Below are positions 6,522-64,000 of a DNA stretch of 64,000 bases, one piece after another; the stretch's first letter is position 1; each line of letters starts with the position of its first letter. Below the pieces are notes generated by a model, which was given only the letters and a program-made list of their open reading frames with translations, was not told the origin of the DNA and did no database searches. The position numbers and the translations under genes are program-made. The stretch spans positions 2,067-66,066 of the forward strand of contig JAKAFY010000006.1 in the NCBI GenBank assembly GCA_021817785.1, read 5' to 3'. This stretch comes from a bacterium. GTDB taxonomy: Bacteria > Patescibacteriota > Microgenomatia > UBA10105 > UBA927.

Positions 6522-6533
6522 CAGATAGTAAAT

Positions 6534-7587: not shown

Positions 7588-7637
7588 CCCGATCCCCTAC
7601 CGGTATTCGCATACCAAAAGCGTGTCCACATGGACGT

Positions 7638-9218
7638 TTAAAAATATCCGCTTCGTATGAGTTGTTGTTGCGTATTCCCATACGGAATCTGCATAAATGG
7701 TGACGGAAGCAACAGCTCGGGAACGGCCGCGCGTATCAGGACATCGCGATATTGTTTTACAATCTGCCTGTGGGAATTCGCTATATTATGTAATTCTTCG
7801 GGATCGCTTCGCAAATCATATAGTTCAGGCTTTTTTTGCGGATCCCGATACACAATCAACGCATAGCGCCGATTCTGGATAACAAACGTATCCTCATAGT
7901 TCATGGACACGGCATACGATTTTGCGCGATACGAAACGCCGGACAACAGCGGGATCAATGACATTCCCTGTATGTATTTGGGCGCAGCCCCGACAACCAT
8001 TGCGGCAATCGTCGGATAGAGATCGAGATTTTCGACTACTGTATCTACATGCCCTCCCCTACTGCCTGGATACGTTATGACGAACGGCACATGATATACC
8101 TCGTTATAAGGAGCATCCATATGGGAAAAGAGTCCGTGTTCACCAAATGCCTCTCCGTGCGCCGCCGTCACGATGATCACGGTATGATTGGCCACGTCAG
8201 GTTTCAATAAATAATCCACAAATCCTGAAAGGCGCGTATCCAATATGTGCAGCTTTGTCTCATAAAGCATCCGAAGGTATGCGACCTCCTGCGGATTATC
8301 TGCATGGATAAACTGCATGTATGGATCATATACGGTTTCCCACGAAAGCAACCGTTGCGTATAGTCATGATTATCTATAAGCTCCTGCAAATAATCCGCG
8401 ATTTTTTTACCACGTATTGAAGGGTCTGCCTGAAAAATTTCTGGGTGCTCCGCTATGGCAGCCGGTACGAATATTTGCCCGACGTGAGCAGATAAGTATG
8501 CCTCGCGGACACGCATAAATTCATCCGTATAAATGGGAAAGCCATCGGGCTTGGGCAAATTCCGGATTGGCCGTTCGGGCGGAACCAACAGGTACGGTAA
8601 ATGCAATTCCTCTGTATATGCGTGGAAAAACACCGGTTTATTTATGGCTACCGCCTGCTTATATTCGTCTATCCATATGTTTTCTGCCGGCGAACTCAAA
8701 TCTGTGTGGACATAGCCACGTAACCCTCCGTTACGTTTGGTTAATAATGCGTCATTATCGTCTCCGATATAATACGTGTCATACCCCTGTTGACCAAGAA
8801 ATTGAGCGAGGGTGACTGTCGTAGGAGAGAGGGCTCCTTCCTGCTGTTTCCAGACTTGATTGATGTTGGGGTATAATGACGTATAGGTAGACAAGGCGCT
8901 CGGCAACGTCCAAAACGATTGGCTATACGCTTGTGAAAACTGCACCCCCGCAGAGGCGAGCCTGCACAAATTTGGAGCAATCTCTTTTCCCTTCCCGTTA
9001 CAATCCAGCTCATCGGCGCGGAGGACGTCCAAATCCAGGATAACCACGTTGCAGTGCCTGCAACCGACGCGTGCGGCAGCGACATGCTCCACGACCCTGC
9101 GGCACATGATGGCTATGGAAATGAGGGCTGCACAAACGCAAATCAGCACCCCCGCTTTTTGTACCCCTGTCCATACCGCTGTTATGTTGTATTTCTTCGG
9201 GTATATAGGATTGTTCAT
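7638..9218 (-). CDS. Sulfatase-like hydrolase/transferase (alkaline phosphatase superfamily), membrane-anchored. It lacks the C/S-x-P-x-R formylglycine motif.
   Basis: VVILDLDVLRADELDCNG...APNLCRLA and a C-terminal HGEAFGEHG. TLPS sits where CTPSR would be. Confidence 0.7.
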   Translation of the reverse strand: MNNPIYPKKYNITAVWTGVQKAGVLICVCAALISIAIMCRRVVEHVAAARVGCRHCNVVILDLDVLRADELDCNGKGKEIAPNLCRLASAGVQFSQAYSQSFWTLPSALSTYTSLYPNINQVWKQQEGALSPTTVTLAQFLGQQGYDTYYIGDDNDALLTKRNGGLRGYVHTDLSSPAENIWIDEYKQAVAINKPVFFHAYTEELHLPYLLVPPERPIRNLPKPDGFPIYTDEFMRVREAYLSAHVGQIFVPAAIAEHPEIFQADPSIRGKKIADYLQELIDNHDYTQRLLSWETVYDPYMQFIHADNPQEVAYLRMLYETKLHILDTRLSGFVDYLLKPDVANHTVIIVTAAHGEAFGEHGLFSHMDAPYNEVYHVPFVITYPGSRGGHVDTVVENLDLYPTIAAMVVGAAPKYIQGMSLIPLLSGVSYRAKSYAVSMNYEDTFVIQNRRYALIVYRDPQKKPELYDLRSDPEELHNIANSHRQIVKQYRDVLIRAAVPELLLPSPFMQIPYGNTQQQLIRSGYF

Positions 9219-49514: not shown

Positions 49515-50614
49515 AGACAAGACTCCCATCTGTTACGACCGTCATGGTGATTTTTTGGAATCTTGGCATGGGAGGCGTCCAGCAGAAAATGATGGATTTC
49601 TCATGGGTTGCGGCACAGGAACCGTCACCGGAAATATGGTTTCATTATGTTCTGCGTGACCGGCCAAAATTCCGTCTCGATCGTGAAATCAATCTAAAAC
49701 AAACCGTTCTTCATTATCGTCCGGGCATACAAAATGGGATATTCCACATGCCGTTTTCTCTTTTCGTTCTTTGGCAGGCGTATATACTGCGCCCCGCCGT
49801 ACTCCTTGCATTTTTAGATCACGCTTCGTTTCTTGCCATCCTCTCTGCCAAAATATTGTTTTGGCGGCGTATACGGGTCGTATTAAACGAGGACACGTTT
49901 ACGTCTCAATTCACGACATCATGGCTGAAACGAAAGTTCATTTCCGCATTGTACCCTTGCGCAGACATAATCATGTCACCGACCAACGCTTCAAAAAAGG
50001 ATCTTGTGCGCATCTTTCGTATTCCTTCTGAGAAGATAACCATCATGCCGAACTGGACTCTTCAAAAAGAGCAAAAACCGATGGTACGGAAATATGATTT
50101 CCTCTATATCGGACGGTTTGCCAAACAAAAAAATTTATTCTTCCTGCTGGACGTACTAAGCGATCTTATAAAATATGACGCGAGTATATCCCTCTGTCTT
50201 GTGGGGGATGGGCCGGAAAAAAATGTATTAATAAATGAAGTGCGCGCACGACATCTGTCCCGAAACGTTACTATTCGCCCTCCAAGCAACCAAATTTCAT
50301 CATATATGAGACAATCGAGGATTTTTGTCCTTTCGTCGCATTATGAGGGCATGCCCGTAGCTCTTCTGGAGGCGATGGCTATGGGGCTTCCTGTCATCAG
50401 TCGTTCGTATCCCGGCATATCCGAATACCTGACACACGGAAAAACAGGGCTCATCGCACGAACTAAACGGGAATTTGTACACCATGCGCGATATTTGCTT
50501 GATCACCCCAGGACACGCGCGGCATTTCAAAAACGCGGCATTCGGGATATCCGTAACCGATTTTCATACAACACGCTGCAAAAATATATAGAGACGATGC
50601 TACAAAACTCCTGA
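49511..50614 (+). CDS. Glycosyltransferase family 4, a tandem paralog.
   Basis: GMGGVQQKMMD and EGMPVALLEAMAMGLPVIS. Confidence 0.8.
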   Translation: MKTRLPSVTTVMVIFWNLGMGGVQQKMMDFSWVAAQEPSPEIWFHYVLRDRPKFRLDREINLKQTVLHYRPGIQNGIFHMPFSLFVLWQAYILRPAVLLAFLDHASFLAILSAKILFWRRIRVVLNEDTFTSQFTTSWLKRKFISALYPCADIIMSPTNASKKDLVRIFRIPSEKITIMPNWTLQKEQKPMVRKYDFLYIGRFAKQKNLFFLLDVLSDLIKYDASISLCLVGDGPEKNVLINEVRARHLSRNVTIRPPSNQISSYMRQSRIFVLSSHYEGMPVALLEAMAMGLPVISRSYPGISEYLTHGKTGLIARTKREFVHHARYLLDHPRTRAAFQKRGIRDIRNRFSYNTLQKYIETMLQNS

Positions 50615-51364
50615 AAACATATCGTGCACAAATTGTTTGGCTATACGCCAGACAAACTGTGCGTTCATTACCGTATACCGGTACCACAATCGCCTCGGCT
50701 CCTGAATAAACCGGTAGATCCATTCTGTTCCGCTCATTTGCATCCACAATGGGGCTTCTTTTTTCCAACCGCTTATAAAATCAAACGTCGACCCGACCCC
50801 CATACAGACTGCCGGAGGCAGCCGGTGACGGTTTGCGAGTATCCATCGTTCCTGATGCGGACACCCGAGCCCTATAAGGATAATATCCGGCCTTGTCAGC
50901 CATATGTCACGGATAATGCGGCGGTTGTCCGATATGGATATCGGCCTATCGGGAGTCTCCCAAACACCCACAATCGCTATCCCAGGGTATAACCGCATCA
51001 ATGCGGAAAGAATATCCTTGGACTGCCCCTGCTGTCCACCGAGAAGAAAGATAGTGAGATGACGTGCGACTGCGCGTTCGCATAATTTCCGTACTAACGT
51101 AGTACCATACACCCGGGTTGTCATTTTGCCATACAGCCGTCCAAGCCACACAAGCGGCATCCCGTCACACACAATGAGACCGGCGGTATTGACCCCTTTA
51201 AGAAGCCTCATATCACGCTGATAGGACATTAACGCGTATGCATTCACAAAACAGACAAAGGTGCTCTCTTTTCTTTTAATCCACCGCAAAATCGTTTGGA
51301 TCGCACCATCGTAATCCGTAACGTGAATGTTGGTCCCTAAAACGAGTAGTCGTTCATTTTCCAT
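50600..51364 (-). CDS. WecB/TagA/CpsF family glycosyltransferase (GT26).
   Basis: The pattern VNAYALM..., DGMPLVW, IFLLGG and GVGSTFDFISG. Confidence 0.8.
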   Translation of the reverse strand: MENERLLVLGTNIHVTDYDGAIQTILRWIKRKESTFVCFVNAYALMSYQRDMRLLKGVNTAGLIVCDGMPLVWLGRLYGKMTTRVYGTTLVRKLCERAVARHLTIFLLGGQQGQSKDILSALMRLYPGIAIVGVWETPDRPISISDNRRIIRDIWLTRPDIILIGLGCPHQERWILANRHRLPPAVCMGVGSTFDFISGWKKEAPLWMQMSGTEWIYRFIQEPRRLWYRYTVMNAQFVWRIAKQFVHDMFSGVL

Positions 51365-51378
51365 AGTCAGGCTGTTCC

Positions 51379-52491
51379 CTAATGATGCACTCTGGGGGTG
51401 CGCTCAACATACACATTTTTGTATTGCCGAAACATGCGCTCTCTTGTATAACGCAAGCGCGCAGTACGAATCGCTCTCTGCCCCATGCGACAGCGTAGTG
51501 ACTTAGACACCAAGAGTCGTCTGATCGCGTTCGTAAGCAATATGGGACGCTTCAACGGGACCACTATTCCTTCAGCGCCGTTTCGGACAACCTCCGTGTT
51601 CGCTTCTATGTTGCTGACAATGCAGGGTAATCCTGCCCGCATGGCCTCCAGAAGCGCAAGAGACATGCCCTCGTCCAAAGACGGAAGCACAAACATATCT
51701 GCCAATCCGAAATATCCACCGGTGGGTTGATGCTCCTGAATCATCACCCGATGATCTAATCCTAACATGCAAATAGTGCGCTGAACCTCATTCTTTTGCG
51801 GCCCATCGCCCACCAGGATGCAATAATACGATTCATGTATGTCTGCAAGCGCTGAAAGTAAATATGGGATATTTTTCCGGGGGATAAATTTCCCAACGTA
51901 CAATACGATGGGGATATGCGGCGACAATCCGAGTGCTGTTCGTAGTTGCTTGGTTTCATTGGCATTCTTCTGTTGGGTGACTCCGTTTGCGATACACGCA
52001 ATTTTATACTGAGGCACGCCAAGACGTGTTGCCAACTTCACCTGAATATGTCGGGCCACACAGATATTTATGTCTACCATATGACAGGATAGTACGTACA
52101 CAATGTTTTTCAGGAATGAATAAGGCTGTTTTTCCCCGAACAAATAATTATGCCGGACGGCAATATGTATTGGTCGGCAAAAAGGGCGGATTAGGAGCCT
52201 GCTTAGAAAAGCGGCGGCATCGCTTTTCAGTGCAGGAGTCTGGATGATATTAATGCGCTCCCGCACAAGCAATCCGGCAATACGGAATATGTCCAGCACC
52301 ATGATTCCGCTTGAGGCATAAAATCGATTGCCAAAACTACGACGGAAGTGTGCCGTCTGAGTTCCGGTGACTTTCAAGCTGTATCCATATACCCGGAATT
52401 CCGATCGGGAAAGTGACGCCGCAAGCTGAACGGCGAGCATATCGAAAGAGACGTCATCATGCTCATTTACGATGAAGAGTATCGATTTCAT
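51379..52491 (-). CDS. Glycosyltransferase family 4.
   Basis: EGMSLALLEAMRAGLPCIVS. Confidence 0.8.
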   Translation of the reverse strand: MKSILFIVNEHDDVSFDMLAVQLAASLSRSEFRVYGYSLKVTGTQTAHFRRSFGNRFYASSGIMVLDIFRIAGLLVRERINIIQTPALKSDAAAFLSRLLIRPFCRPIHIAVRHNYLFGEKQPYSFLKNIVYVLSCHMVDINICVARHIQVKLATRLGVPQYKIACIANGVTQQKNANETKQLRTALGLSPHIPIVLYVGKFIPRKNIPYLLSALADIHESYYCILVGDGPQKNEVQRTICMLGLDHRVMIQEHQPTGGYFGLADMFVLPSLDEGMSLALLEAMRAGLPCIVSNIEANTEVVRNGAEGIVVPLKRPILLTNAIRRLLVSKSLRCRMGQRAIRTARLRYTRERMFRQYKNVYVERTPRVHH

Positions 52492-52502
52492 ACAAATACT
52501 AT

Positions 52503-53492
52503 TTATCGAGATGGAACAAAATTCCAGCGGCGGTTTGTCGTTATTTCATGAAAAAGAACATCCGCGTACATACGGTGGGCGAGCGCGGACGGATGTTCTT
52601 CGAGGGAAGATACGTGGAAATATCTATCGGTATCCGAAAAATACTTTCCATACACCGGAGAATTTCTCGCGAGAGATGAAGAAAGTATATACAATCCGTC
52701 CCGCGCCAATGCCGTTTCATATATATGCGTGGTTGTATCTATATTGAAATAATCATCTGGGATAAAATATATCGCACGATCCTTTGGATAGGCGGCCGCG
52801 ACAATATTCAAAACACATATATTTGACGGGTTTGCATATGCTTCACGTATTTTTCGATTGTAATACTTCATTCCTTTATTCCAGTCGGCCGGACCAACAC
52901 CAGATACGGCATGACCCGTGGTTTGTTCGCAGGGTGTGATAAGCATGTCATATATCTTTTGATCATAATCGCGCCGCAAATTCAGCATAACGTCGTTGTT
53001 TACCGGTACAAAAATATATAAATCTATATGTTTATCACGTAAATATAGATATTTTGAATAATTTTCCACCATATCATCACCGGGTGAGGCGAGAGAAAGC
53101 ACTCGCGTTTTCCTCACTGCATTCAGCTTCCTCTCAAGCACCTGAGACACGGAATTTGAAAATAACACACCCTGACCCCACACATAGGAATCACCAATCA
53201 TGGCAATCGTAAACGTATGCGGGCGTGTATCGTTTTGAAGAGCTCTATACTCGGATGGGATACCGGACAGAAGTGATCGGTCGAATAATGGAATTACGTC
53301 CCAAGCCCTTCTCCCAAAATCAGTAAGCTCGGTATGTCCTCCGGGTATCCAATACCCGTATTCCGTACTTTTATAGTAAATCACTGTATCAAAAAAATAT
53401 GTTACACATACATAATATGCGAGTCGGCAGGCAATAATACTGGATACCAATATCAGTACCGTGCGCGTTACGCATTTCAGATATGTATTCAT
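52503..53492 (-). CDS. SGNH/GDSL hydrolase family protein, membrane-anchored.
   Basis: IAMIGDSYVWGQG (GDS block I) and an N-terminal TM segment. Confidence 0.6.
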   Translation of the reverse strand: MNTYLKCVTRTVLILVSSIIACRLAYYVCVTYFFDTVIYYKSTEYGYWIPGGHTELTDFGRRAWDVIPLFDRSLLSGIPSEYRALQNDTRPHTFTIAMIGDSYVWGQGVLFSNSVSQVLERKLNAVRKTRVLSLASPGDDMVENYSKYLYLRDKHIDLYIFVPVNNDVMLNLRRDYDQKIYDMLITPCEQTTGHAVSGVGPADWNKGMKYYNRKIREAYANPSNICVLNIVAAAYPKDRAIYFIPDDYFNIDTTTHIYETALARDGLYILSSSLARNSPVYGKYFSDTDRYFHVSSLEEHPSALAHRMYADVLFHEITTNRRWNFVPSR

Positions 53493-53522
53493 ATAAACTT
53501 GTATAAATAGCTATAGACACGT

Positions 53523-54542
53523 TCAAAGGGAGCGGATATATCGCATCAGCAACCGCGCCCTGTCATCAATAGACGCATATTTGCGCGCGTACCGTAGTCC
53601 GCGTTCGGCAATTTGTCTTCTTTCCTCCGGGTGTGCCAAATAATAGTCTATCTGCCGAATCATGTTACTACCGCCCCGAGTCACAACGACGCATTTCTTA
53701 AGTTCCGTGTCTTCTGACGGAATGTGATCGGTCATAAGAAACCCCCCGCATGCAAGCACCTCAAGAGTACGCAGGGTAATAACATCCCAATCGACAGTAT
53801 CTTTTGTCGCATAATTTATGTTAATTTTTGCAGAACTATAAAGAGGCGGGAGTTCGCGTTGAGGTATCTTGCCCCTGCATATAAAATATAAATCCATAAC
53901 CGACCTGCGGGCCTTATGACGCACTTTCCAATTCCTGAACGAATACCTCCAGTTATGCAGAAAAGGGGCTATTTCCTGTATATAATCAGGATGAGGCGCG
54001 TCGCTCCATTTCCCGAATAACCCGAAGTTATATCGCATAAGGGGCAGTAAATATGTAATTGTCCTCGCGGCTTCTTTAAAATCATTCCCTACAAATGTAA
54101 CATCAAACATATATTTCTTTTGTGGCTTTTGGGGTGAATATTGAAGAGTGTCTACCCCAAACGGTAAAAATGCCCCTCCATATCCATCTGACATCTGACG
54201 CTTTTGTAGCTTTTTTGATATAAATATATATCCGTCATACCGGTATTTACGCAGGTATTTTAGTTTTTTATAAGATCCTTCAAAATATGGGTTTTGAAGA
54301 TATAGGACATGTTTCGCTGCCCATTGAGCAACAGGCCGTGAATCGTTTACATAAATCATCACATCGACTGATTTTGTCGGTAAGTAATTCGGAGCGTATA
54401 ACGTGGCATCAACTCCGCATGTTTTTTTTAAGCTCGCGCAGAGGGATTCTATGTATATTTCATCACCTAATACGATAGCGTTTGCGTTCTGCAATGAATA
54501 TTTGGGCCATTTCATATAGAATCCGATCCGGAGTGTAGACAT
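53523..54542 (-). CDS. CgeB-like glycosyltransferase (Glyco_trans_1_2-type C-terminal domain).
   Basis: LRTLEVLACGGFLMTD and the surrounding pattern. Confidence 0.6.
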   Translation of the reverse strand: MSTLRIGFYMKWPKYSLQNANAIVLGDEIYIESLCASLKKTCGVDATLYAPNYLPTKSVDVMIYVNDSRPVAQWAAKHVLYLQNPYFEGSYKKLKYLRKYRYDGYIFISKKLQKRQMSDGYGGAFLPFGVDTLQYSPQKPQKKYMFDVTFVGNDFKEAARTITYLLPLMRYNFGLFGKWSDAPHPDYIQEIAPFLHNWRYSFRNWKVRHKARRSVMDLYFICRGKIPQRELPPLYSSAKININYATKDTVDWDVITLRTLEVLACGGFLMTDHIPSEDTELKKCVVVTRGGSNMIRQIDYYLAHPEERRQIAERGLRYARKYASIDDRARLLMRYIRSL

Positions 54543-54702
54543 GATAGTCTGATGAGGTTCTTAATACGTCATCATTTAGCGCAAGATACGAAATATATTG
54601 TTTGTATTTCTATATATCAACTCACCCGGAATATGGTGTGTCACATGTGCCGTGTAAGCGGATCTTTATGTGATGTATTATATTTTTTATCATAATGAAT
54701 AG

Positions 54703-55944
54703 CTAGACACGCATTATATTTTTCTCCATATATAAGCGGATTATTTTAACATGGTTTCTCCAGGAGTTCCGTTTCAAAAATGCCGTGGGGATTGGCGTTT
54801 GCCGTGTTCGCCGTTGCTTTAATGCGGCGCGCGCGCAACGCAAGTATTCATGCGTCGTTTTACCAACCCAGACAAGGGGCTTCATGATGCGGATCATTTC
54901 GATATCCGTGCTCACGACGGGGATACCAGCAGCAATATACTCATACACCTTTATGGGATTCGATCCACACACAAACCTCTGTGATGGATCATACAATACT
55001 AAGCCTACATCCAGAGACCGAAGTAGCGAATATATACGCCCGTGAGAAACCTCCGGGACATAATAAACATTCGGTAATGCCAATATTCGAAATAGGTTCT
55101 CATAAAATGCGTACATAACCCCCTGACGAGGAGAAAACTCATGTATTCTTCCGACTAGAATTATGTTCCACCGGGGACATTGCCTGGCCATCTTGTAGAT
55201 AAGCCGAAAATCTAATCTATGGTCTATGGAGCCCACAACACCAAAACGCGGGTGTGGACACGTCGCTTCCAGCATGTCTTCGTCTTGCGTTTTATAAATC
55301 GGTTCATGTTCATCTGCTCCCCAAGGGGCCAATAGGACGTTTTTTGAAAATCGGTGTACGTATCGGTAACTCAATCGGGAATTTACAACAACGAGGGATG
55401 AGACCCCAATCAATTGCCTGTCCGACTGTTGTATGCTAGCATTTTCCCTTCTGTCCGCAGACGCAACATGGTCAGGTCGATCATACACCCGCAGTCGTCC
55501 AAACTTCCTATACTCAGGGAATCGGATGGCATCATACGCAAAATACCAAACGATTGGGCGATGCAGACCAAACCGCAAGAAATATATTGTGCGAAATAAT
55601 ATGTACGTGACTTTCGTATTTAAATCCCGTATACATCCGAAGCGTTGAAGGGGTAATACAATCGTGGGGATATATACCACTGACCGGTCATAAAAGGGCC
55701 GCAGATACTCACGACGTGCATTACTATCGTGAATTAAAGTACGCCATGAATATGAAACAAACGGGTTATGGATAACTACCGTTGAATTGAGGGCTAATTC
55801 ATGACTTATCGCACGAACATACCCACAGGAATAATCCCATGAATCCTGAAATAATATGAGGACAATATCCTGCGTAAAGACCTCCGTAAAAACCCTATCG
55901 CCATCATGAGCATGCAGTATATCAAAACAGCTTGTACTGAACAA
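54703..55944 (-). CDS. GT1-fold glycosyltransferase, paralog B of the 44908 family.
   Basis: VVGSIDHRLDFRLI, IILVGR and IKVYEYIAAGIPVVSTDI. Confidence 0.6.
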   Translation of the reverse strand: MFSTSCFDILHAHDGDRVFTEVFTQDIVLILFQDSWDYSCGYVRAISHELALNSTVVIHNPFVSYSWRTLIHDSNARREYLRPFYDRSVVYIPTIVLPLQRFGCIRDLNTKVTYILFRTIYFLRFGLHRPIVWYFAYDAIRFPEYRKFGRLRVYDRPDHVASADRRENASIQQSDRQLIGVSSLVVVNSRLSYRYVHRFSKNVLLAPWGADEHEPIYKTQDEDMLEATCPHPRFGVVGSIDHRLDFRLIYKMARQCPRWNIILVGRIHEFSPRQGVMYAFYENLFRILALPNVYYVPEVSHGRIYSLLRSLDVGLVLYDPSQRFVCGSNPIKVYEYIAAGIPVVSTDIEMIRIMKPLVWVGKTTHEYLRCARAALKQRRTRQTPIPTAFLKRNSWRNHVKIIRLYMEKNIMRV

Positions 55945-56007
55945 TTTCTGTTCAGAGACATCGAGATGGTGCCAATCGGATATGTAGGCGCGATGTTCTC
56001 AGGTCGT

Positions 56008-57195
56008 TTATCTTCGTTTTTTGATGTGCGTCAGCCGCATAATACGGGAAACCTTTCTTCTCCAACTATTCTCTGAAGCTATGCGCCGCTGTTGTTTTAT
56101 ATATGTTATTGGCCACTGCACCAGGGAATAACGGGAGAGAATCTCCCTCCATCCGCGCACGGAATTGCTGCATTGTACGAACGGAGAGTACTTTTTTAGT
56201 GAAGGTATATCAGTGGACACAACCGGTTTGCCCGAGTAAAAATACTCAAATATTTTCATTGGATAACAGAATTGATTAAATTCCTGACGTGTATCGTACG
56301 GAACCATGCAGATAGCAAACAGGTTAAGAATAGCGGGGATATATTTCTGCTGAACACTCATTTGTAAAAAAAATACGTTTGGTAAGCGTGATAAATCTTC
56401 TACCAGTTTTGCCGTCGTACCCACTTTCAGGCCTACATGTTTATCCTGATCTGTTTGATCCGGTCCGACAAATACAAAATTATGATGTAAACATTTTTGA
56501 GCAACCCCCTTCACTAAGGCAAAATCGATTCTATGGTTGATGCCACCCACAAATCCGATTATGGGTTTCTGACTCAGCTCTTTAAATTGCTTCTGTAATG
56601 AATAGGGAAGTGGTAACGGGTGAATAAATTCATCGCGCCGAAACCCCTGAGGAACCAACGTTACATTTGGCGCGATGCTCGATACGTGATCTACGACTTT
56701 GGGTGAAATCGCCACCACCAAATCGCATGATCGAACGAGTAATTGTTCTCGGGAACGCATTTCCGCAGAAAGGATAAATTCCGACGCTGGAAAATAGTCT
56801 ACGACGTCATAAATCGAAAAATAATGTATTTTGAGGAGCTTGAATATGTCAAAATCGTACGGGTGAAAAAGCCATAAATATCTTTTATGAATGCGACCGC
56901 ACCATTGCATTACGTAGCTGACCATCGTAATAACATAGATATTCAATATAATATTTGCGGCATGGAACTTGGGAAGCGTACCCAATTCAAAGAGACTTAC
57001 CGGCTTAATAAAATAAAATCCGTATGGAGATTTGGTAACTGGAGATACTCCGAATAATAAATCGCGCAGAGTGACAGTCTCATTGATCAGAAAACACACA
57101 ACGAAATTTGACTCAGCAAGAATACGACCGGTTTCTTCCACAAAATTACATATTTCATCGCGCTTATCTCTAAAAATTAACAGATAAAAATCCAT
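56008..57195 (-). CDS. GT1-fold glycosyltransferase, paralog C of the 44908 family.
   Basis: VGGINHRIDFALV, FVFVGP and MKIFEYFYSGKPVVSTDI. Confidence 0.6.
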   Translation of the reverse strand: MDFYLLIFRDKRDEICNFVEETGRILAESNFVVCFLINETVTLRDLLFGVSPVTKSPYGFYFIKPVSLFELGTLPKFHAANIILNIYVITMVSYVMQWCGRIHKRYLWLFHPYDFDIFKLLKIHYFSIYDVVDYFPASEFILSAEMRSREQLLVRSCDLVVAISPKVVDHVSSIAPNVTLVPQGFRRDEFIHPLPLPYSLQKQFKELSQKPIIGFVGGINHRIDFALVKGVAQKCLHHNFVFVGPDQTDQDKHVGLKVGTTAKLVEDLSRLPNVFFLQMSVQQKYIPAILNLFAICMVPYDTRQEFNQFCYPMKIFEYFYSGKPVVSTDIPSLKKYSPFVQCSNSVRGWREILSRYSLVQWPITYIKQQRRIASENSWRRKVSRIMRLTHIKKRR

Positions 57196-57371
57196 AACCT
57201 ATGTAATGTAGGAATATGCTACAAAATACATACGACCGCAATATGTCGGTATGTAGCTTTCTGCTCATCAGTCTTCCATACATTATATCGTCTTTCAGAA
57301 GGCGTGGCGCGGATACTTTATACATGGGAATGCGTACTAAAAACGGGGTGCAGTGAAGAAGCTATATACAA

Positions 57372-58082
57372 TTATGGTTCCAACACTATTTCTTTATAGT
57401 GCCTATTGTTAGGATATATGAACGGAATTTGTGTCGTGTAACAGGCTAATAATTCTTCCTTATTCTTTTGGAAGGGAATCACCGATCGCCGCAAAGACAA
57501 TAAAAGGATGATATTCCGCACCGTCCAGTTAAATAGGGATAATGCATAAGGATAGTCCGCATAATATCCGACTTTCTCTTTCGGAAACACGGCCTCCGCC
57601 GCCAGACGCACTAATACGTGGTCTATGTGTCCGCCTATGCCCAACGGAATCAGAATTCTGTCGCATCGAAGATACTGCGCAAGGCTGTTTTCTATTTTAC
57701 GTAATAGCGCCATATCAGAAGAAGAGATCTTTCCTGAAAATAGCTGTTTGAATTTTGGATAGATCAGCTTATTTTTATACGTTCTGAATCCGCCGTCTGT
57801 ATATGACAAATGCTGCCACTGTACACCAAGAAGTCGCATCGCAGCTTTGTCCTCATTCCTTCGCTTTGTTTCAAACTCCCGGGGTGAAGAAAAAGATATC
57901 CCGGTGTATCTTCGTACATCCCGTGAAAGTGTGCTGGTGCGGAACGTGGTAAATAGCGTTACTATTTTTATCGCATACCCCTGCGACTTCCACATCTGTA
58001 TATGATTTGCTACGTCTAATACAGCATCGTCAAGATGCGGAGATAATACGATTATATATGGCGTCGTATCAACAGTTTTCAT
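57372..58082 (-). CDS. PIG-L/LmbE family N-acetylglucosaminyl deacetylase.
   Basis: VLSPHLDDAVL and GIGGHIDH. The start was chosen at MKTVDT because the upstream 57 codons are Cys/Met-rich and look spurious. Confidence 0.7.
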   Translation of the reverse strand: MKTVDTTPYIIVLSPHLDDAVLDVANHIQMWKSQGYAIKIVTLFTTFRTSTLSRDVRRYTGISFSSPREFETKRRNEDKAAMRLLGVQWQHLSYTDGGFRTYKNKLIYPKFKQLFSGKISSSDMALLRKIENSLAQYLRCDRILIPLGIGGHIDHVLVRLAAEAVFPKEKVGYYADYPYALSLFNWTVRNIILLLSLRRSVIPFQKNKEELLACYTTQIPFIYPNNRHYKEIVLEP

Positions 58083-58202
58083 ACACATATATACGCACAT
58101 CCAGACGACGAAACATCGAACGCAATCCGCAGTGTACAATATGAACTTCGGTTCTCGATATACCAAGAGACTAATAAGGCTAGGTATACTATAATACCTT
58201 GC

Positions 58203-58970
58203 ATGCAACACGCATATTATCATTATTGGCAGCTGCTCGTTCGCATGGTCCATAAAGAACTGCAGGTGCGCTACAAGCGCACCATCTTTGGGTTTTTATG
58301 GATTATCATCAATCCACTCATTCAAATGGCAGTCATAGGTTTTATTTTCCCTTTTTTCGTAAAAGAACAACTTCCATACTATTTACTATATCTCTTCACG
58401 GGCTTACTCACATGGAATTTTTTTACCTTGTCGCTGGGCAAGGCGACTTCGTCAATTGTATTCGAGACAGCTCTCATCAAAAAGGCGAGGTTTCCCAGGT
58501 CAATTATTCCACTCTCCATTGTTATTTCCAACGTAGTAAATATGCTGATTTCGTTTTTATTACTACTTATTCCAACAGTATATCTTCGTCTGTTTGCCAT
58601 TGTAAGCATCGGATATTTTTTTGTCGGACTCGTGTTATTGATAACATTTACGATAGGACTAAGCCTGTTTAGCTCCGCGCTCAATGTTCGATATAGGGAT
58701 ATCAATTTTTTTGTGCAAGCGCTTCTAATTGTTTGGTTCTATGCAACGCCGATCATGTACCCTATGCGCTTTATTCCTCATGCGTATGCCCCATTATGGT
58801 TTCTTAACCCTATGACGTCTGTCGTACAGCTGTTCCAACACGTATTTGCTTCGTATCCGCTACCGTCACTTCCGCTATTTGTCGTAAATACCATCACTGT
58901 GTTTATTGTCTTGGGTTTCGGCATTTTGACCTTTCGCAGAGAAAGTCAGAATTTTGATGATTGGTTATGA
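58203..58970 (+). CDS. ABC-2 type export permease (Wzm-like), a paralog of 36127.
   Basis: RYKRTIFGFLWIIINPLIQM and the 6-TM pattern. Confidence 0.8.
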   Translation: MQHAYYHYWQLLVRMVHKELQVRYKRTIFGFLWIIINPLIQMAVIGFIFPFFVKEQLPYYLLYLFTGLLTWNFFTLSLGKATSSIVFETALIKKARFPRSIIPLSIVISNVVNMLISFLLLLIPTVYLRLFAIVSIGYFFVGLVLLITFTIGLSLFSSALNVRYRDINFFVQALLIVWFYATPIMYPMRFIPHAYAPLWFLNPMTSVVQLFQHVFASYPLPSLPLFVVNTITVFIVLGFGILTFRRESQNFDDWL

Positions 58971-59686
58971 AAAAAATACTACAACCCGCCATATTGTTAA
59001 CGGATATATCAAAAAAATACGAAATTCATCACGAAAAACCCACATTGGTGGAAAAATTTATCCATGGGCGAAATGAGACATTTTGGGCACTCCAGAGGAT
59101 CAATATGCGGGTGTACCCGAATGAACGGGTGGCGATAATCGGCGCCAACGGATCAGGAAAAACTACATTATTAAAAATAATCTGCGGCATTGCCACCCCA
59201 ACCACAGGAGCGATTCAAATCTCAGGCAAAATCGTTTCGCTCATAGACATTGTTGCTGGTTTTCAATCTGATCTGACCGGATATCAAAATATATTTATAA
59301 ACGGTTTGCTTATAGGAATGACGGAGCAAGAAATAATGCACAACATAGACTCCATTATATCGTTTGCCGACATAAAACAATTTATAGACGTTCCATTTTA
59401 TACGTACTCAAGCGGCATGGCGCTACGATTGGGCTTTGCTATTGCTATTCATGCAAAGCCGGATATTTTATTAATTGACGAGGGGTTGGGGGTAGGGGAC
59501 AAGAATTTTCAAAAAAAATCGGAACGGGCAATCCGGACATTACTAAAAAAGCGCATTACAGTCATCATGGTATCCCATCAGCTAAATCTCATTAAGCACA
59601 TTTGCAATAGGGTTATCATTCTCAACAAGGGGACAATTACAGCAGACGGGCCAATCGATATTCTCAAACAGCACGGATACGAATAA
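58961..59686 (+). CDS. ABC transporter ATP-binding protein (Wzt-like), a paralog of 36918.
   Basis: GANGSGKTT, SSGMALRLGFA and LLIDE. SKKYEIHHEKPTLVEKF is identical to 36918. Confidence 0.85.
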   Translation: MVMKKILQPAILLTDISKKYEIHHEKPTLVEKFIHGRNETFWALQRINMRVYPNERVAIIGANGSGKTTLLKIICGIATPTTGAIQISGKIVSLIDIVAGFQSDLTGYQNIFINGLLIGMTEQEIMHNIDSIISFADIKQFIDVPFYTYSSGMALRLGFAIAIHAKPDILLIDEGLGVGDKNFQKKSERAIRTLLKKRITVIMVSHQLNLIKHICNRVIILNKGTITADGPIDILKQHGYE

Positions 59687-59692
59687 CAAACC

Positions 59693-60529
59693 ATGTGGAT
59701 TGCAAAAACCAATTTTGGTCTGAAACGTTTCGTAGGCATATTATTTCTTTTATCTGTTCTCCCATATATCAACCTCAGCGCGACAAACGGAAACACCTTG
59801 TTCTTTGCGATTCTTTTAATAACGTATATAGGTCTCGTTTTCTATAATGTTTATGACCGTGGACTTATCATTCGTATAAAGAAATTTTCTGTTGGCAAAA
59901 CAAAATATGAAGTACGTCTATGTATGTATTTTAAGTCATCACAACTAAGCACGAAATCAATTGTTATCACTCCCTCAGGAGCTATATTATCATCAATTCC
60001 GCTTGCAACTGGAGGGGAGTGGACATACTTTCCGTTTATTACGACGCTACTAAACAACCACCAGATCAAACGGGCGCTTGTATTGGGTGGCGGGGGAGGA
60101 GCAATACCATATATGCTTCTTCGTCATGGTATTTGTTTATCGGTTGATACAGTGGAAAAATATGCTTGCATGATTTCTATCGCCAAACAATATATGTTAC
60201 CAAAGCCGTTACCAACAGGATTACATCTTATCCATAATGACGCAAAAAAATATCTATCAAAAACAATAAAACCTTTTGATCTCATTATTGTTGATATATT
60301 TGAGGGAACTGTTCCTCAACTTGTGTGGGATAAACAGTTTATTAGCTCCATCAAACGATCTCTACGCAAAGACGGAATCCTCATAGTTAATTTCGGATTT
60401 AAGGAAAAAACGAATATTACAGAATTAGAACAATTGTATTCAAATACAATCTCTAATTTTTCTCTATACTACATAAACAACGCGATCATTGGTATTAGCA
60501 ATGCAACACCAACGTACGATAGAATTTGA
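59693..60529 (+). CDS. Membrane-anchored spermidine-synthase-like (class I SAM-dependent MTase fold) protein.
   Basis: Two N-terminal TM segments, then RALVLGGGGGAIP (a glycine-rich nucleotide loop) and LIIVDIFEG. Confidence 0.5.
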   Translation: MWIAKTNFGLKRFVGILFLLSVLPYINLSATNGNTLFFAILLITYIGLVFYNVYDRGLIIRIKKFSVGKTKYEVRLCMYFKSSQLSTKSIVITPSGAILSSIPLATGGEWTYFPFITTLLNNHQIKRALVLGGGGGAIPYMLLRHGICLSVDTVEKYACMISIAKQYMLPKPLPTGLHLIHNDAKKYLSKTIKPFDLIIVDIFEGTVPQLVWDKQFISSIKRSLRKDGILIVNFGFKEKTNITELEQLYSNTISNFSLYYINNAIIGISNATPTYDRI

Positions 60530-60532
60530 CCT

Positions 60533-61306
60533 ATGCAGACATTCCATATACCTATTGCAGGAACCGCATTTGATATCCAAACAGATGAAGCAGAAATTAT
60601 CCGCTTCATATCAAACGTATACGCATCTTCCCAACTGCCGATATTAAAAAACGATCCGCTGACAACAATTACTATCTCATACGGCCCCGCACATATAACG
60701 GTCGATATTACAAAAAAAATGGCACTTATTTTAACGCCAGAAAAATCCCCGAATTTGCCATTAGTGTTTGATATGGTACGGTCCGGAGTTAGTCAATTTC
60801 TTCCATTGCATGATGCGTTGCTACTCCATGCATCAGTCGTTGTATCAGATAATCAAGCATATATTTTTTCAGGACCGGTAGGTGCCGGAAAATCTACCAT
60901 ACGGAAGCTTCTTAATGCCAAGCCATGCTACGGTGACGACACGGCTGTCTTGAAGCGGGAAACGCATGGCTGGGTAGCATACCCATCACCACTCTACGAG
61001 TCGTCCCAACGCGTCTATGAAGGGAAAAAGGTGCCAATAAAAGGCATATATTTTATTTATCAAAATAAAAATCAGCTAACTCGACTTCCCTTATCAACTG
61101 CTTACATAGAAGTCGTACGTGGCCTCAAACATTATCTTAATGACCCCTTTACGATTCATTCTACTGGCGTTAACAATCTTGAAAAGCATGTTACCAATGT
61201 GACAAATGACTTATGCGAACAAATAGCGCGATCTATCCCCTGTTATTCTCTTGGATTCAGCAACAACAATCTTGCGTTTTGGGATTTGGTACGGTACACT
61301 CGCTAG
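60533..61306 (+). CDS. HPr kinase-related P-loop kinase (HprK C-terminal domain-like).
   Basis: LHASVVVSDNQAYIFSGPVGAGKST, the typical HprK-like block preceding the P-loop. Confidence 0.55.
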   Translation: MQTFHIPIAGTAFDIQTDEAEIIRFISNVYASSQLPILKNDPLTTITISYGPAHITVDITKKMALILTPEKSPNLPLVFDMVRSGVSQFLPLHDALLLHASVVVSDNQAYIFSGPVGAGKSTIRKLLNAKPCYGDDTAVLKRETHGWVAYPSPLYESSQRVYEGKKVPIKGIYFIYQNKNQLTRLPLSTAYIEVVRGLKHYLNDPFTIHSTGVNNLEKHVTNVTNDLCEQIARSIPCYSLGFSNNNLAFWDLVRYTR

Positions 61307-61307
61307 C

Positions 61308-61592
61308 ATGAAAAAATTAACGGTAAAAACAATTATTAAAAAAAATAGAGACGTGGTACAAAAAGAACTTAATGGCATTACGTATCTCATGAATCCTCAT
61401 GACAAAACCGTTCATACCCTGAACGAAACTGCTTCGTTCATCTGGAAATCATTTAACACACCGACATCTATCCAAATGATAGCGGATAAATTAACGTCCG
61501 AGTATAAAATAGATAAACACAAAGCGCTTGAGGATATTCTTGACTTTGTAGAAATGTATATTGATCATGACATGATTCTCGCTTCAACATAA
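61308..61592 (+). CDS. PqqD-family protein (RiPP recognition element-like peptide chaperone).
   Basis: ~95 aa with LNGITYLMNPHDKTVHTLNETASFIWK...SIQMIADKLTSEY...LEDILDFVEMYIDHDMI (the PqqD pattern). The start was chosen at MKKLT. Confidence 0.55.
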   Translation: MKKLTVKTIIKKNRDVVQKELNGITYLMNPHDKTVHTLNETASFIWKSFNTPTSIQMIADKLTSEYKIDKHKALEDILDFVEMYIDHDMILAST

Positions 61593-62341
61593 TGTCGTCA
61601 CTATCACATTGGCTGATTCTCCACAAAAAACAGGTTAAAAATACTTTGTTCGTCTTTGCACATCCCGATGACGAAGTTATTCATGGCGGAGCACTCTTAT
61701 ATTGGATGGCTGCACATAGCTTTACCCCGCACGTTCTCATTCTGACCCATGGGGAGAATGGAATAAATCGTACATATACAAATCGTAGCCGTCTCACAAA
61801 TATACGTCACAAAGAATTTATCGCCGTCATGAAACAGGCTCATATAATGCATGCCTCAATCCTACATTTACCAGACGGGGGGTTGATTGCATGCCAACGC
61901 GATACACGTTCGATAATCCACACCTACTGTCATGATCATCATATAGGGGCAATCGTCACCCACGACCCCACAGGGGGAACGGGTCATCCAGATCACATTA
62001 CTATTAGTTGGATATGCAAACAACTTGCCACCGCAAATAATCTTCATTTATTTTATTCGATAGATCCGATGATTCAATACAATAAGGATATAAAATATAC
62101 GCGGTATGAGCTAGCACTTTCCAAAAAAATGGTGCTGAAAAAGATTCAACTTCTTGAGATGTATGTGAGTCAAATTACCAAAAAAGAAATCTCTGCCATA
62201 ACGCTCCGGTTATTATTTACACCATACGAATATTTTGCATGTATTAAGAAAGGACCACGCGTCGCATTCAAATATACTCGGTTTCACCCAAGAGGATATA
62301 CGTTTGTACCTGATACACATACTCGTACTGTGCATGTTTAA
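61592..62341 (+). CDS. PIG-L/LmbE family deacetylase (second copy).
   Basis: FVFAHPDDEVIHGG and THDPTGGTGHPDH. Confidence 0.75.
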   Translation: MSSLSHWLILHKKQVKNTLFVFAHPDDEVIHGGALLYWMAAHSFTPHVLILTHGENGINRTYTNRSRLTNIRHKEFIAVMKQAHIMHASILHLPDGGLIACQRDTRSIIHTYCHDHHIGAIVTHDPTGGTGHPDHITISWICKQLATANNLHLFYSIDPMIQYNKDIKYTRYELALSKKMVLKKIQLLEMYVSQITKKEISAITLRLLFTPYEYFACIKKGPRVAFKYTRFHPRGYTFVPDTHTRTVHV

Positions 62342-62655
62342 TCGTTCTGGTCTGAGTCTCTGAAATGCGAAAAGGGGGACTCATCTCTAAATCCCTAGGC
62401 CACAGCCGCCGCCATGAGCGTTATCAAGGACCAATGAAGCAACGCTCTTTCGATAGAATTAAGCCGGGTTCTTTCCGCACCGAATAGATTCCTCTCATAG
62501 AGGGCTACATGATGGTCGCGGTTTCCGACGTCAAAATGGCAAGTTTCTCTATTTTTACTGATGGTTTCTGGTATTTTTTCATTCCGGCTGACTTTTTTAT
62601 TATTTTTTTCATCGTATATCCTCCTTGTCTATTAAATATAACAATTATTAAACGT

Positions 62656-63711
62656 ATGTCAACACTCCGCTTTCGGTGCTATACTACCCCAATCATGATT
62701 CGCCACACGTTATCAGTAATCATTCCGACTCGCAAACGAGCAGCCACACTTCAAAATACCTTGGCTGCTTTGTCGCTCCAAAATCCGAAGCCTCACCAGG
62801 TGATTATCGTAAATAATTGCGTTGATAAACAAACTGATTCGGTCGTTGCAGCGTTTACCAGTAGCTTGCCGATACAATATTATTCCGAGCTGCGAACGGG
62901 ACCGTCATTTGCGCGCAATACGGGGTTTCGACATGCTACGGGCACCGTAATTGCATTTTTAGATGACGACTGCGTGCCTGCAAAACACTGGGTCCGCGAT
63001 ATCCTGGCCACATACAAAACCAACGCATATCCTGACAGGATCTTCCAAGGATATTGCTCACACGTGTTCCCGACAACCAATATTCTCACCGATATGTTTT
63101 ATTTCCGAAATACATATAACATACCCAAAAATATTGGCGCCCGGCGCGGTAATACACTCCGTGTTATTGACTCGACGCTTGCCGGTTGTTGTTTCATGAA
63201 TCGAAACGTGCTTGATAAGATGCCGTACGTATTCGATACGGAATTATTTCCATTTATCGGTGAAGAAAGAGACTTCAGCGTACGAGCACAGCTTGCCGGG
63301 GCCGTCATAATGCAACATCCAAAAGTTGCGGTTGTGCACTATAAACAGGCGGCACGAAATCCGTTGAAATCTTTTCAAAACGCATTTATGGTTGGCAGAG
63401 CGTATAAAATCATGCAGCTCAAATATCTTCCATATTCACCAGCGAGGCAATTGTTTGGAGCAGAAGTCAAATCTTTGCCACATGAACCCCACATCATGGT
63501 ATGGCATCATATTCGCCTTTTTTGGGAGTTATATCATAATAAATCCGTATTCTGGAAATGCGCTGCATTTTCATTTGAGACAGTTAGGTCTCTTTTTTCA
63601 TTATTCGGCATGGCATATACTCAAATAGTGTTTGGCGGACGATTCAATGATCTGAAGACGACGCATTCATCCACAACACGACGCGATACGCTGTTGCCAA
63701 CAAGCGGATAA
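62656..63711 (+). CDS. Glycosyltransferase family 2.
   Basis: LSVIIPTRKRA and AFLDDDCVPAKHW. The start is uncertain (62656 or 62695). Confidence 0.7.
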   Translation: MSTLRFRCYTTPIMIRHTLSVIIPTRKRAATLQNTLAALSLQNPKPHQVIIVNNCVDKQTDSVVAAFTSSLPIQYYSELRTGPSFARNTGFRHATGTVIAFLDDDCVPAKHWVRDILATYKTNAYPDRIFQGYCSHVFPTTNILTDMFYFRNTYNIPKNIGARRGNTLRVIDSTLAGCCFMNRNVLDKMPYVFDTELFPFIGEERDFSVRAQLAGAVIMQHPKVAVVHYKQAARNPLKSFQNAFMVGRAYKIMQLKYLPYSPARQLFGAEVKSLPHEPHIMVWHHIRLFWELYHNKSVFWKCAAFSFETVRSLFSLFGMAYTQIVFGGRFNDLKTTHSSTTRRDTLLPTSG

Positions 63712-63991
63712 ACATAGAATACCCTCTGGTTTTCCGATACGTATAACGCACAATAAGTCTATGAATAAATCGTACACTTGGCGCATTCAAGCTATAGGTT
63801 TTACCAGCTATTGTAAGCCGCGTTGCTACGCCAATAATTGAACTTCTTGCAAGCCATCCGTCTGAATACCCCAGCGCATCTCCTTTGATTTCATATGTTA
63901 CAGATGGTTGCTCTTTTATGTGTACCACTCTGTGTCCGATAAGATCATTTCCCCGGTAGAATACAACGACATCGCCACATTGCGCGGTCAA
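63644..63991 (-). CDS. Possible signal peptidase I-like (S26) C-terminal fragment. The gene start lies beyond the window end.
   Basis: GDVVVFYRGNDLIGHRVV resembles the SPase I box. This is a weak call. Confidence 0.3.
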   Translation of the reverse strand: MTAQCGDVVVFYRGNDLIGHRVVHIKEQPSVTYEIKGDALGYSDGWLARSSIIGVATRLTIAGKTYSLNAPSVRFIHRLIVRYTYRKTRGYSMFIRLLATAYRVVLWMNASSSDH

Positions 63992-64000
63992 GTCATAATC

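Follow-up and report, generated by a model that had tools for sequence, protein, structure and literature searches.

The window analysed here is a 64,000-nucleotide stretch of the Microgenomatia contig JAKAFY010000006.1 (assembly GCA_021817785.1, positions 2,067 to 66,066 of the forward strand). Towards its end lies a module in which a gene for an HprK-like kinase is followed by a gene for a PqqD-type recognition element for peptides that are made on the ribosome and modified after translation (RiPPs; RiPP recognition element, RRE), and a 40-kb glycan locus with many family-4 glycosyltransferase (GT4), Wzy_C and flippase genes surrounds this module. On the evidence set out below, the module is probably a RiPP cluster of the kind that makes linear polyphosphorylated peptides (LPPs), likely for a small phosphorylated and probably sugar-decorated peptide, in a bacterium of the candidate phyla radiation (CPR). 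As judged from sequence, this host is a CPR bacterium of the Microgenomates group and a relative of Candidatus Gottesmanbacteria; one of the related loci (L004) matched a metagenome-assembled genome (MAG; L012) of Candidatus Gottesmanbacteria with 100% identity across 8 kb.

LPPs were described in May 2026 by Popov et al. (Nat Commun) for the lppA-K-B-S-D-N cluster of Paenibacillus alginolyticus and were called restricted to Bacillota (PMC13381572). Their genes, situated within capsule loci, specify a SipW-like signal peptidase of the archaeal type (LppS), a discrete RRE (LppB), a kinase resembling HprK (LppK), an NTP_transf_5 protein (LppN), a pump resembling MsbA and precursors of 35–200 amino acids (aa) with the consensus YxxPxVLxHQxIxFETxxS (PMC13381572). 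LppK polyphosphorylates S3 of the LppA core, Y-16 and P-13 of the LppA leader are required for RRE binding, and LppS cleaves after T-1 only with LppB presenting the leader; LppN was inactive in the heterologous host, possibly because a partner encoded outside the core cluster was missing (PMC13381572). In Supplementary Data 2 of that study, TIGR04249 and TIGR04352 together account for 132 of the 152 'HprK kinase' calls, with peptidases called from TIGR02228 and RREs from PqqD (PMC13381572). The total count of Glycos_transf_2 in the LPP set of the study is only 19, against 140–152 for the core domains (PMC13381572). The principal features of the window module are the following.

60533–61306, plus strand: HprK/PEPCK-fold P-loop kinase of the ScmC/HprK-related type (LppK-like), from sub-threshold NCBIfam matches and a fold match
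61308–61592, plus strand: discrete PqqD-family RRE (LppB- or lasso B1-like), PF05402 at 55.8 bits
62505–62612, minus strand: candidate precursor peptide gene, 35 aa, MKKIIKKSAGMKKYQKPSVKIEKLAILTSETATIM, a conserved small open reading frame (ORF) in the gap between the PIG-L gene and the family-2 glycosyltransferase (GT2) gene
62619–62662, minus strand: promoter-like and ribosome-binding signals of the precursor gene, from a promoter scan and reading of the sequence
63644–64000, minus strand, incomplete at the window end: homologue of SipW/archaeal-type signal peptidase I and candidate for the leader peptidase (LppS-like), TIGR02228
L001 13567–14730, minus strand, just beyond the window: NTP_transf_5 nucleotidyltransferase, PF14907 at 64 bits (cutoff 31.2)

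Kinase and recognition element

The kinase is 257 aa long, and its N-terminal half differs from that of HPr kinase/phosphorylase (HprK/P). It exhibited no match in the local Pfam copy, and neither Hpr_kinase_N/C (Pfam) nor TIGR00679 (NCBIfam) recognised it. Its top NCBIfam matches were ScmC (TIGR04249; 31.8 bits, cutoff 125) and HprK_rel_A (TIGR04352; 24.6 bits, cutoff 200), and its precomputed Pfam label in the protein database is PF27840 'ScmC'. The AlphaFold2 model (predicted local distance difference test 78.8, predicted template modelling score 0.81) supports a kinase fold of the phosphoenolpyruvate carboxykinase (PEPCK)/HprK type, because a Foldseek comparison with the PDB placed PEP carboxykinases first (E ~5e-8), followed by the HprK/P structures 1knx, 1ko7, 1kkl and 3tqf (E 4e-5 to 1e-3, template modelling (TM) scores 0.26–0.35). 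Among 80 members of the kinase family, His99, G119-K120-x-T122 and D135-D136 were invariant or nearly so, and the Walker A motif read GxxGxGK[ST]T. 'HprK-like P-loop kinase', in keeping with an earlier reading of the letters alone (hereafter the original prediction), is a fair description, and the protein is not a genuine HprK/P; it is predicted to be a Ser/Thr kinase acting on a precursor peptide. A word-indexed search returned only six relatives of it, and a full hidden Markov model (HMM) search with the kinase family returned 11,619 50%-identity clusters at E <= 1e-3, 34 at E <= 1e-30 and only four scoring above 260 bits. One family member, at L032 (513–2633, on a short contig), is followed by a 431-aa QueC-like (PP-loop ATPase) protein where PqqD would be expected.

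The PqqD protein scored well above the PF05402 cutoff (23.4 bits) and matched lasso_PqqD_Bac over its full length (38.9 bits) as well as ScmD (TIGR04248; 27.8 bits, cutoff 100). Its closest solved relatives were PbaB1 (9x90_B, E 7.7e-5), TbiB1 and LppB (9x8z_B, E 0.12). The alignment with the LppB chain 9x8z_B was free of gaps, and the LppB residues that hold the YxxP motif, L32, N33, Y60, D70 and F74, correspond to L38, N39, Y66, D76 and F80 of the window protein; in LppB, D70 hydrogen-bonds the motif Tyr (PMC13381572). The overlap of start and stop codons that the original prediction described for the kinase/PqqD pair lies instead at the PqqD/PIG-L junction (TAATG, 61590–61594): the PqqD ATG at 61308 comes one base after the kinase stop (61304–61306), without overlap.

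The arrangement was compared with that in other loci, namely L004, L005/L006 and L008 (close), L007 (partial) and L035 and L037 (distant), together with L001, a contig base-for-base identical to window positions 50533–64000 that extends beyond the window end. In the close loci the genes run from ABC-2 permease and ABC ATPase through kinase, PqqD and PIG-L to GT2, with ~200 bp free of such genes between PIG-L and GT2, followed on the opposite strand by a small S24/S26-like peptidase and then NTP_transf_5 (PF14907). Since L004, L005/L006 and L008, whose kinases are 39–46% identical to that of the window, all repeat the series ABC_tran–kinase–PqqD–PIG-L–gap–GT2, and the kinase–PqqD–GT2 core recurs at ~25% kinase identity in L035 and L037, the kinase/PqqD arrangement is not a chance juxtaposition. 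The pair was syntenic across five lineages (kinase identity 25–46%), and the kinase shared an operon with an RRE gene in every close relative. Conservation of the PqqD gene and its neighbourhood in related loci agrees with the original prediction, which had taken the pair as a signature of peptide modification.

Candidate precursor gene, candidate leader peptidase and nucleotidyltransferase

Enumeration of small ORFs in the PIG-L/GT2 gap of four lineages revealed a homologous minus-strand ORF in the window, L004, L005/L006 and L008/L029. The encoded peptides are MKKIIKKSAGMKKYQKPSVKIEKLAILTSETATIM in the window, MNKQVNSVKVKQVYKKPSVTIEKLTVLNTDTVASSV in L004, MTKKTTKKADTKKTYQAPRVSIEKLTLLNTEGSTS in L005 and MTTKKQTKKEAAKKPYQAPRVAIEKLTLLNTEASTS in L008; they share the motif YxxPxVxIEKL[TA]xL[NT][TS][ED], in which the window leader reads YQKPSV (YxxPxV), and continue in a Ser/Thr-rich tail of 4–6 residues. 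Over a 17-codon block, the window departs from the other copies at 21–23 of 51 bases; 10 of the 17 residues are nonetheless identical, and there are seven synonymous codon changes, including a Ser change from TCA to AGT. Because the residues are retained despite so many base differences and synonymous changes, the substitution pattern is, as far as sequence comparison can tell, a signature of selection on the protein.

Upstream of the window ORF, the promoter scan revealed a match at 11 of 12 consensus positions with TG ahead of the -10 hexamer: a -35 element TTGACA (62662–62657), a 16-nt spacer and a TG-extended -10 element TATATT (62640–62635). A Shine-Dalgarno sequence, AAGGAGGA (62626–62619), lies six bases ahead of the ATG. 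TTGACA/TTGACG-N17-TATACT/TAATAT likewise precedes the peptide ORF in L004, L005, L008 and L035. The 40-codon plus-strand ORF at 62365–62487 that the original prediction had put forward as a precursor candidate exists, but the corresponding gap in L004, L005 and L008 holds no counterpart of it. An ORF of 44/58 aa overlapping the NTP_transf_5 start in L001/L002 was also rejected as a precursor, having no counterpart in L004 or L005. The practical lesson is that the precursor runs antisense to the operon and was masked by a GT2 ORF that had been called too long.

The conserved hydroxyl residue ([TS]) comes 15 residues after the motif Tyr, and cleavage after this hydroxyl residue would leave the predicted cores ETATIM in the window and DTVASSV, EGSTS and EASTS in its relatives. 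Position 3 of the predicted core is Ser in EGSTS and EASTS (L005 and L008), as is the phosphorylated S3 of LppA. Compared with the LPP consensus, the peptides fit YxxPxV, and they agree with it in being hydrophobic at +13 and in having Thr/Ser at +15; only those of L005 and L008 have Ser at +18, and the central LxHQxI and FE positions are unmatched. The four peptides matched no NCBIfam family, and neither the peptide nor the peptidase gave an informative sequence match in the PDB. In DNA-pattern motif scans of 185,579 species genomes and JGI metagenomes, the only real matches were the Gottesmanbacteria MAG and the L008 contig, and a metagenome peptide-motif scan yielded 19 stretches with only L029 (= L008) real; the remaining motif stretches among L013–L031 were chance matches in long ORFs or unrelated genes. 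Because all other matches were due to chance, the exact peptide type is rare.

More distant versions of the peptide accompany the distant loci. In L035 (at 6606–8462, minus strand) the peptide (...YQLPKEKIEKLEIYTYV) lies directly upstream of a radical S-adenosylmethionine (SAM) gene, and in L037 (at 5128–6330, minus strand) the peptide (MTSSHKKKYSKPKIKTRALF..., with YSKPKI) lies upstream of another. The L035 cluster comprises kinase, PqqD, GT2, peptidase, NTP_transf_5 and a B12-binding radical SAM gene; that of L037 comprises kinase–PqqD–GT2, a radical SAM gene and a second PqqD gene. Both have the appearance of additional RiPP variants, not yet described, in which the kinase/RRE/GT2 core is shared.

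Two core genes had gone unrecognised in the original prediction, the SipW-type peptidase (63644 to the window end) and NTP_transf_5 beyond it. The full peptidase gene encodes 152 aa and extends to window-equivalent position 64102 (L001 13570). At full length the protein scored 44.6 bits with TIGR02228 (sigpep_I_arch; cutoff 51.85) and 24.8 bits with SipW, and its motifs G[TI]SMxP, GHR[IV] and KGD (Ser/His/Asp) were invariant. It is 25–36% identical to the signal peptidase I (SpI) proteins of the LPP study (PMC13381572), and in all the close loci ~2 kb separate its gene from that of PqqD. NTP_transf_5 is also present in L004, L005 and L035. The NTP_transf_5 and peptidase genes are adjacent in L001 and L004, with a 4-bp overlap in L001, and in L005 (12946–14574, minus strand) the two form a single 542-aa protein with the SipW-like peptidase as its C-terminal part, a fusion that links the two functionally.

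Outside these genes, a Wzy_C (O-antigen ligase/polymerase family) gene and then a DUF4330 gene flank the module in L001 (16063–18402, equivalent to window ~66.6–68.9 kb) and L035 (613–2926). In L004 and L005 a PMT_2 (GT-C) gene adjoins NTP_transf_5 in place of Wzy_C/DUF4330; Wzy_C and PMT_2 are both membrane glycosyltransferase families.

Putative exporter, deacetylase and glycosyltransferase

The remaining genes of the module lie on the plus strand.

58203–58970, plus strand: ABC-2 (Wzm-like) permease, putative exporter subunit and first gene of the plus-strand operon, PF01061 at 55.4 bits
58967–59686, plus strand: ABC ATPase (Wzt/TagH-like), putative exporter subunit, PF00005 at 76 bits
59693–60529, plus strand: accessory SpeE-fold protein (SAM- or decarboxylated SAM (dcSAM)-dependent transferase fold), PF01564 at E 6e-12
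61592–62341, plus strand: LmbE/PIG-L-family de-N-acetylase, PF02585 at 77.7 bits
62695–63711, plus strand: soluble GT2, PF00535 at 76.9 bits

All ORFs named in the original prediction are present where it had placed them, and the Pfam and NCBIfam matches agree with its description of a Wzm/Wzt exporter and a SpeE-fold protein ahead of the kinase/PqqD pair and an LmbE protein and GT2 behind it. The permease matched the NCBIfam galactan Wzm model at 57 bits, far below cutoff, and the ATPase matched the TagH/Wzt models at 162–175 bits, also below their cutoffs. In L001, L004, L005 and L008 the kinase operon has the permease gene directly upstream of it (the gene is truncated in L007), and the ATPase gene is immediately 5' of the kinase gene in L005, L007 and L008. 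In L005, a gene for an ArsR-type HTH_5 regulator is located directly ahead of the ABC-2 genes.

The SpeE-fold protein has two N-terminal hydrophobic helices and scored 41–51 bits with the NCBIfam SpeE models, whose cutoffs are ~250–300. Spermidine synthases and other aminopropyltransferases carry the dcSAM-binding motif GGGDG. Because GGGGGA (window) or GGGGGS (L004) stands in its place, the protein may be a methyltransferase or something else. The gene was found only in the window lineage and L004, at differing positions, and was absent from L005, L008 and L035; for the aminopropylation proposed in the original prediction, the fold is thus the sole support. L005, a lineage without the SpeE-fold gene, has a gene for S-adenosylmethionine decarboxylase (AdoMet_dc; 387–773, minus strand) ~9 kb upstream of the module.

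The PIG-L gene follows PqqD in L001, L004, L005 and L008; neither L035 nor L037 has it. A second PIG-L/LmbE-family gene (57372–58253, minus strand), divergent from the ABC-2 permease gene, has a long hydrophobic N-terminal extension in its longest ORF, is called at 236 aa in L001 and L002, and is not conserved in L004 or L005.

The GT2 best matched MftF in NCBIfam (TIGR03965; 78 bits, sub-threshold), and no transmembrane segment was found in it. Its true start is probably the ATG at 62695 (MIRHTLSVIIPT) or 62656 and not 62509, because the ORF from 62509 runs across the conserved peptide gene of the minus strand and its relatives have lengths of 303–328 aa. The GT2 gene adjoins the kinase or PqqD gene in 8 of the 8 independent loci long enough to show it.

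Proposed pathway, rival explanations and the wider window

Taken as an LPP-type cluster, the module suggests a pathway whose steps are all inferred from homology and context, the published activities being those of homologues. The 35-aa peptide would be transcribed from its own strong minus-strand promoter, and the discrete PqqD-type RRE would bind the YQKPSV leader motif and present the peptide to the HprK/ScmC-like kinase for phosphorylation of its short C-terminal tail at Ser or Thr. Decoration of the phosphate or of an adjacent hydroxyl would come next, with NTP_transf_5 and the soluble GT2 adding a sugar and the LmbE-type enzyme de-N-acetylating it. Guided by the RRE, the SipW-like serine peptidase would remove the leader, by analogy with LppA after the conserved [TS] 15 residues past Tyr, to leave a core of 5–7 residues, and the Wzm/Wzt-like ABC-2 pump would export the product. 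Of the options in the original prediction, a modified small peptide that leaves the cell through the neighbouring ABC pair is the best fit to the evidence.

Support for an LPP-type cluster comes from the HMM families of the module, because they are those that define LPP clusters (PMC13381572 Supplementary Data 2), from the conservation in the window PqqD protein of the residues with which LppB grips YxxP, and from the conserved YxxPxV ORF, because it has a promoter, a Shine-Dalgarno sequence and the 15-residue spacing of LppA; LPP clusters are likewise embedded in polysaccharide loci. Gene by gene, the two systems share an HprK-related kinase, with TIGR04249 and TIGR04352 as the two best (sub-threshold) window matches, a discrete PqqD RRE in which the Tyr-binding Asp is conserved, a SipW/TIGR02228-type serine peptidase in place of the lasso protease B2 (the window's score of 44.6 bits being below cutoff), an NTP_transf_5 gene, the lack of a cyclase, a site inside a polysaccharide locus, and a short precursor with YxxPxV and a hydroxyl 15 residues after Tyr, as from Y-16 to T-1 in LppA.

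Several observations weigh against this assignment. The leader beyond YxxPxV departs from the LPP consensus, reading xIEKL[TA]xL[NT][TS][ED] where LPP leaders read LxHQxIxFET. The predicted core of 5–7 residues is far shorter than the 45 residues of the characterised LppA core, and the window core, E-T-A-T-I-M, has no Ser at position 3, while LppK rejected an S3T substitution (PMC13381572). The exporter is also of another type, an ABC-2 Wzm/Wzt-like pair and not an MsbA-like pump (TIGR02203/02204), and no MsbA-type gene was found within 10 kb of the module in L001, L004 or L005. The peptidase and RRE are no closer to those of Bacillota LPP clusters than to other SpI/RRE clusters or to lasso B1: the proteins share only 25–36% identity with their LPP counterparts, which are not specifically their nearest relatives, and in pairwise BLAST the window-lineage proteins exhibited no preference for SpI of sequence similarity network cluster 1 or for LppB sequences. 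Furthermore, a divergent kinase branch (24–32% identity; L009 4547–8072, L033 38–3511 and L036 4257–7577) occurs with a SipW-like peptidase, a divergently transcribed GT2 and a membrane protein, the last being a GT-C-like multi-pass protein of ~400–460 aa and/or the product of a Wzy_C gene. Neither PqqD nor a YxxP peptide is visible in these three loci (contigs of 5–9 kb), which suggests that the kinase–GT2–peptidase trio may act independently of a peptide.

Other differences concern the setting. The window host is a CPR bacterium whereas LPPs were called Bacillota-restricted, the soluble GT2 and PIG-L deacetylase are syntenic in the window-type loci, and the window precursor is antisense to the enzyme operon. 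As host, leader, core, pump, synteny and sequence affinity differ, the module is classed here as working like an LPP system and as a variant of LPP; demonstrated membership in the LPP clade of Bacillota is not claimed for it. The original prediction had considered the system undescribed; the same enzyme set and YxxPxV leader were published in 2026 as LPP (PMC13381572). A system of this kind is thus already in the literature, and what is new here is a CPR variant with a newly located precursor gene.

The locus represents a remote and very compact LPP version, with a 35-aa precursor, a predicted core of 5–7 residues and a GT2 and deacetylase fixed in synteny. It supplies concrete candidates for tailoring steps that have been missing, gives mass spectrometry a much simpler substrate, and could make the LPP end-product experimentally tractable. 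A reduced-genome CPR bacterium here keeps about ten genes for a modified peptide within an envelope-glycan locus, which fits the speculation that the peptides act with capsule or biofilm polysaccharides (PMC13381572). In the lasso field, the B1 RRE accelerates the kinase BsfK, and the nucleotidyltransferase PsmN adds hexoses to phosphoserine (PMC10368454, PMC8498205). We tentatively raise the possibility that the soluble GT2 is the 'missing partner' of NTP_transf_5, with LmbE joining in the close lineages, to convert a phosphorylated core of 5–7 residues into a phospho-linked amino-sugar glycopeptide exported by Wzm/Wzt; in the extreme form of this idea, a glycan chain would be primed or anchored by the peptide, and the result would be an envelope polymer linked to a ribosomal peptide. 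If true, it would reveal the final chemistry of the LPP/phosphoglycosylated-lasso group.

Among the other explanations, it is unlikely, though worth weighing, that the module modifies or exports an envelope glycan or glycoprotein, such as a phosphorylated, deacetylated amino-sugar polymer, with PqqD and the small ORF incidental or regulatory. The position of the module within the 40-kb glycan locus, the usual role of Wzm/Wzt-type pumps as polymer exporters and the PMT_2 or Wzy_C genes that flank the module in several loci are in keeping with it, as are L009, L033 and L036, which keep the GT2, the peptidase and the large membrane protein with no PqqD or peptide visible; these short contigs may, however, simply miss the PqqD and peptide genes. 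A glycan substrate leaves unexplained an RRE with intact YxxP-binding residues and a conserved, promoter-bearing YxxPxV gene at a fixed position, and so the phosphorylation of a glycan polymer, also entertained in the original prediction, fared less well than the peptide option. Moreover, in the characterised LPP and paeninodin systems the same four families of enzyme have a peptide as their substrate, and the GT2 is without a membrane segment.

A phosphorylated lasso cluster of the paeninodin/Bsf type, with the cyclase and B2 encoded elsewhere or lost, is very unlikely, because no cyclase or B2 is present in the conserved module (as the original prediction had also noted), the nearby Asn synthase is AsnB-like and the core has too few residues. 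In both NCBIfam and the PDB, the PqqD protein does match lasso B1 chaperones best, YxxPx[VL] with a hydroxyl 15 residues later is also the lasso Y-17/T-2 spacing, and an Asn_synthase-family gene lies ~10 kb downstream in L001. That enzyme, however, has strong GATase_6/7 matches, as do AsnB-type enzymes, and neither an Asn_synthase nor a transglutaminase-like B2 gene was found within 10 kb in L004 or L005. The 5–7 post-leader residues (10–12 counted from IEKL, 4–6 after the [TS][ED] site) are too few for a 7–9-membered ring and a threaded tail, and a SipW-type peptidase replaces B2, as in LPP. Lasso cores number about 15 residues or more and carry Gly/Ala/Ser/Cys at position 1 and Asp/Glu at positions 7–9. 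Phosphorylated and phosphoglycosylated lasso peptides (paeninodin, pseudomycoidin, Bsf) nevertheless share with the module the kinase, a B1-type RRE, NTP_transf_5 and a YxxPx[LV] leader (PMC8498205, PMC10368454), and their nucleotidyltransferase is sometimes fused to the leader peptidase B2, which echoes the fusion in L005 (PMC8498205). The module differs from them in having neither the cyclase nor the cysteine protease B2, its peptidase being a Ser/His signal-peptidase homologue.

Membership in a SynChlorMet (SCM; TIGR04248–04251) cassette or an HPr-rel-A (TIGR04352–04355) system is equally hard to credit. These systems share the pairing of an HprK-related P-loop protein with a PqqD-family protein; ScmC is the best match and HprK_rel_A the second for the kinase, ScmD is among the PqqD matches, and radical SAM genes accompany L035 and L037. 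The bit scores, however, are far below the trusted equivalog cutoffs (31.8 versus 125, 27.8 versus 100 and 24.6 versus 200), and the window module lacks a radical SAM/SPASM pair (ScmE and ScmF in the SCM cassette), a second HprK-related kinase B and a TIGR04353 match. The check with TIGR models suggested in the original prediction gave only the weak TIGR04352 score, with no TIGR04353 or TIGR04355 match at E <= 0.1 among the window proteins. In addition, kinases of LPP and paeninodin clusters are caught by these TIGR models in a generic way (PMC13381572). A search of the literature on ScmC/SynChlorMet turned up only unrelated uses of the acronyms.

That the kinase is a genuine HprK/P of carbon catabolite control is practically out of the question: the two have a fold and P-loop architecture in common, but the kinase matches none of the HprK/P models, differs in its N-terminal half, is placed by the fold search nearer to PEPCK than to HprK/P (TM-scores 0.26–0.35 to the latter) and is operonic with an RRE in every close relative.

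The LPP-type module also resembles mycofactocin biosynthesis (MftA-F) in having a small precursor, a PqqD-type RRE, a dedicated peptidase and a GT2, which in mycofactocin glycosylates the peptide-derived product. The likeness is in logic only, since the window locus has no MftC radical SAM gene and its leader and peptidase are unrelated.

Elsewhere in the window, a gene at 1477–3408 (minus strand) encodes a 643-aa tyrosyl-tRNA synthetase with an N-terminal YbaK-like editing domain (PF04073) and a C-terminal tRNA_bind domain; its Gottesmanbacteria orthologue (466 aa) is 67% identical and is without the editing domain. ARAGORN called a 71-nt tRNA-Met at 6452–6522 (plus strand), where the Rfam tRNA model remained below its gathering score; the other two window tRNAs were supported by both. 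Within or beside the large glycan locus lie genes for a 980-aa protein with a PQQ-like beta-propeller and DUF5060 (41959–44901, plus strand) and for a sulfatase with an SGSH_C domain (7638–9218, minus strand); sulfatases flank the L035 cluster too.

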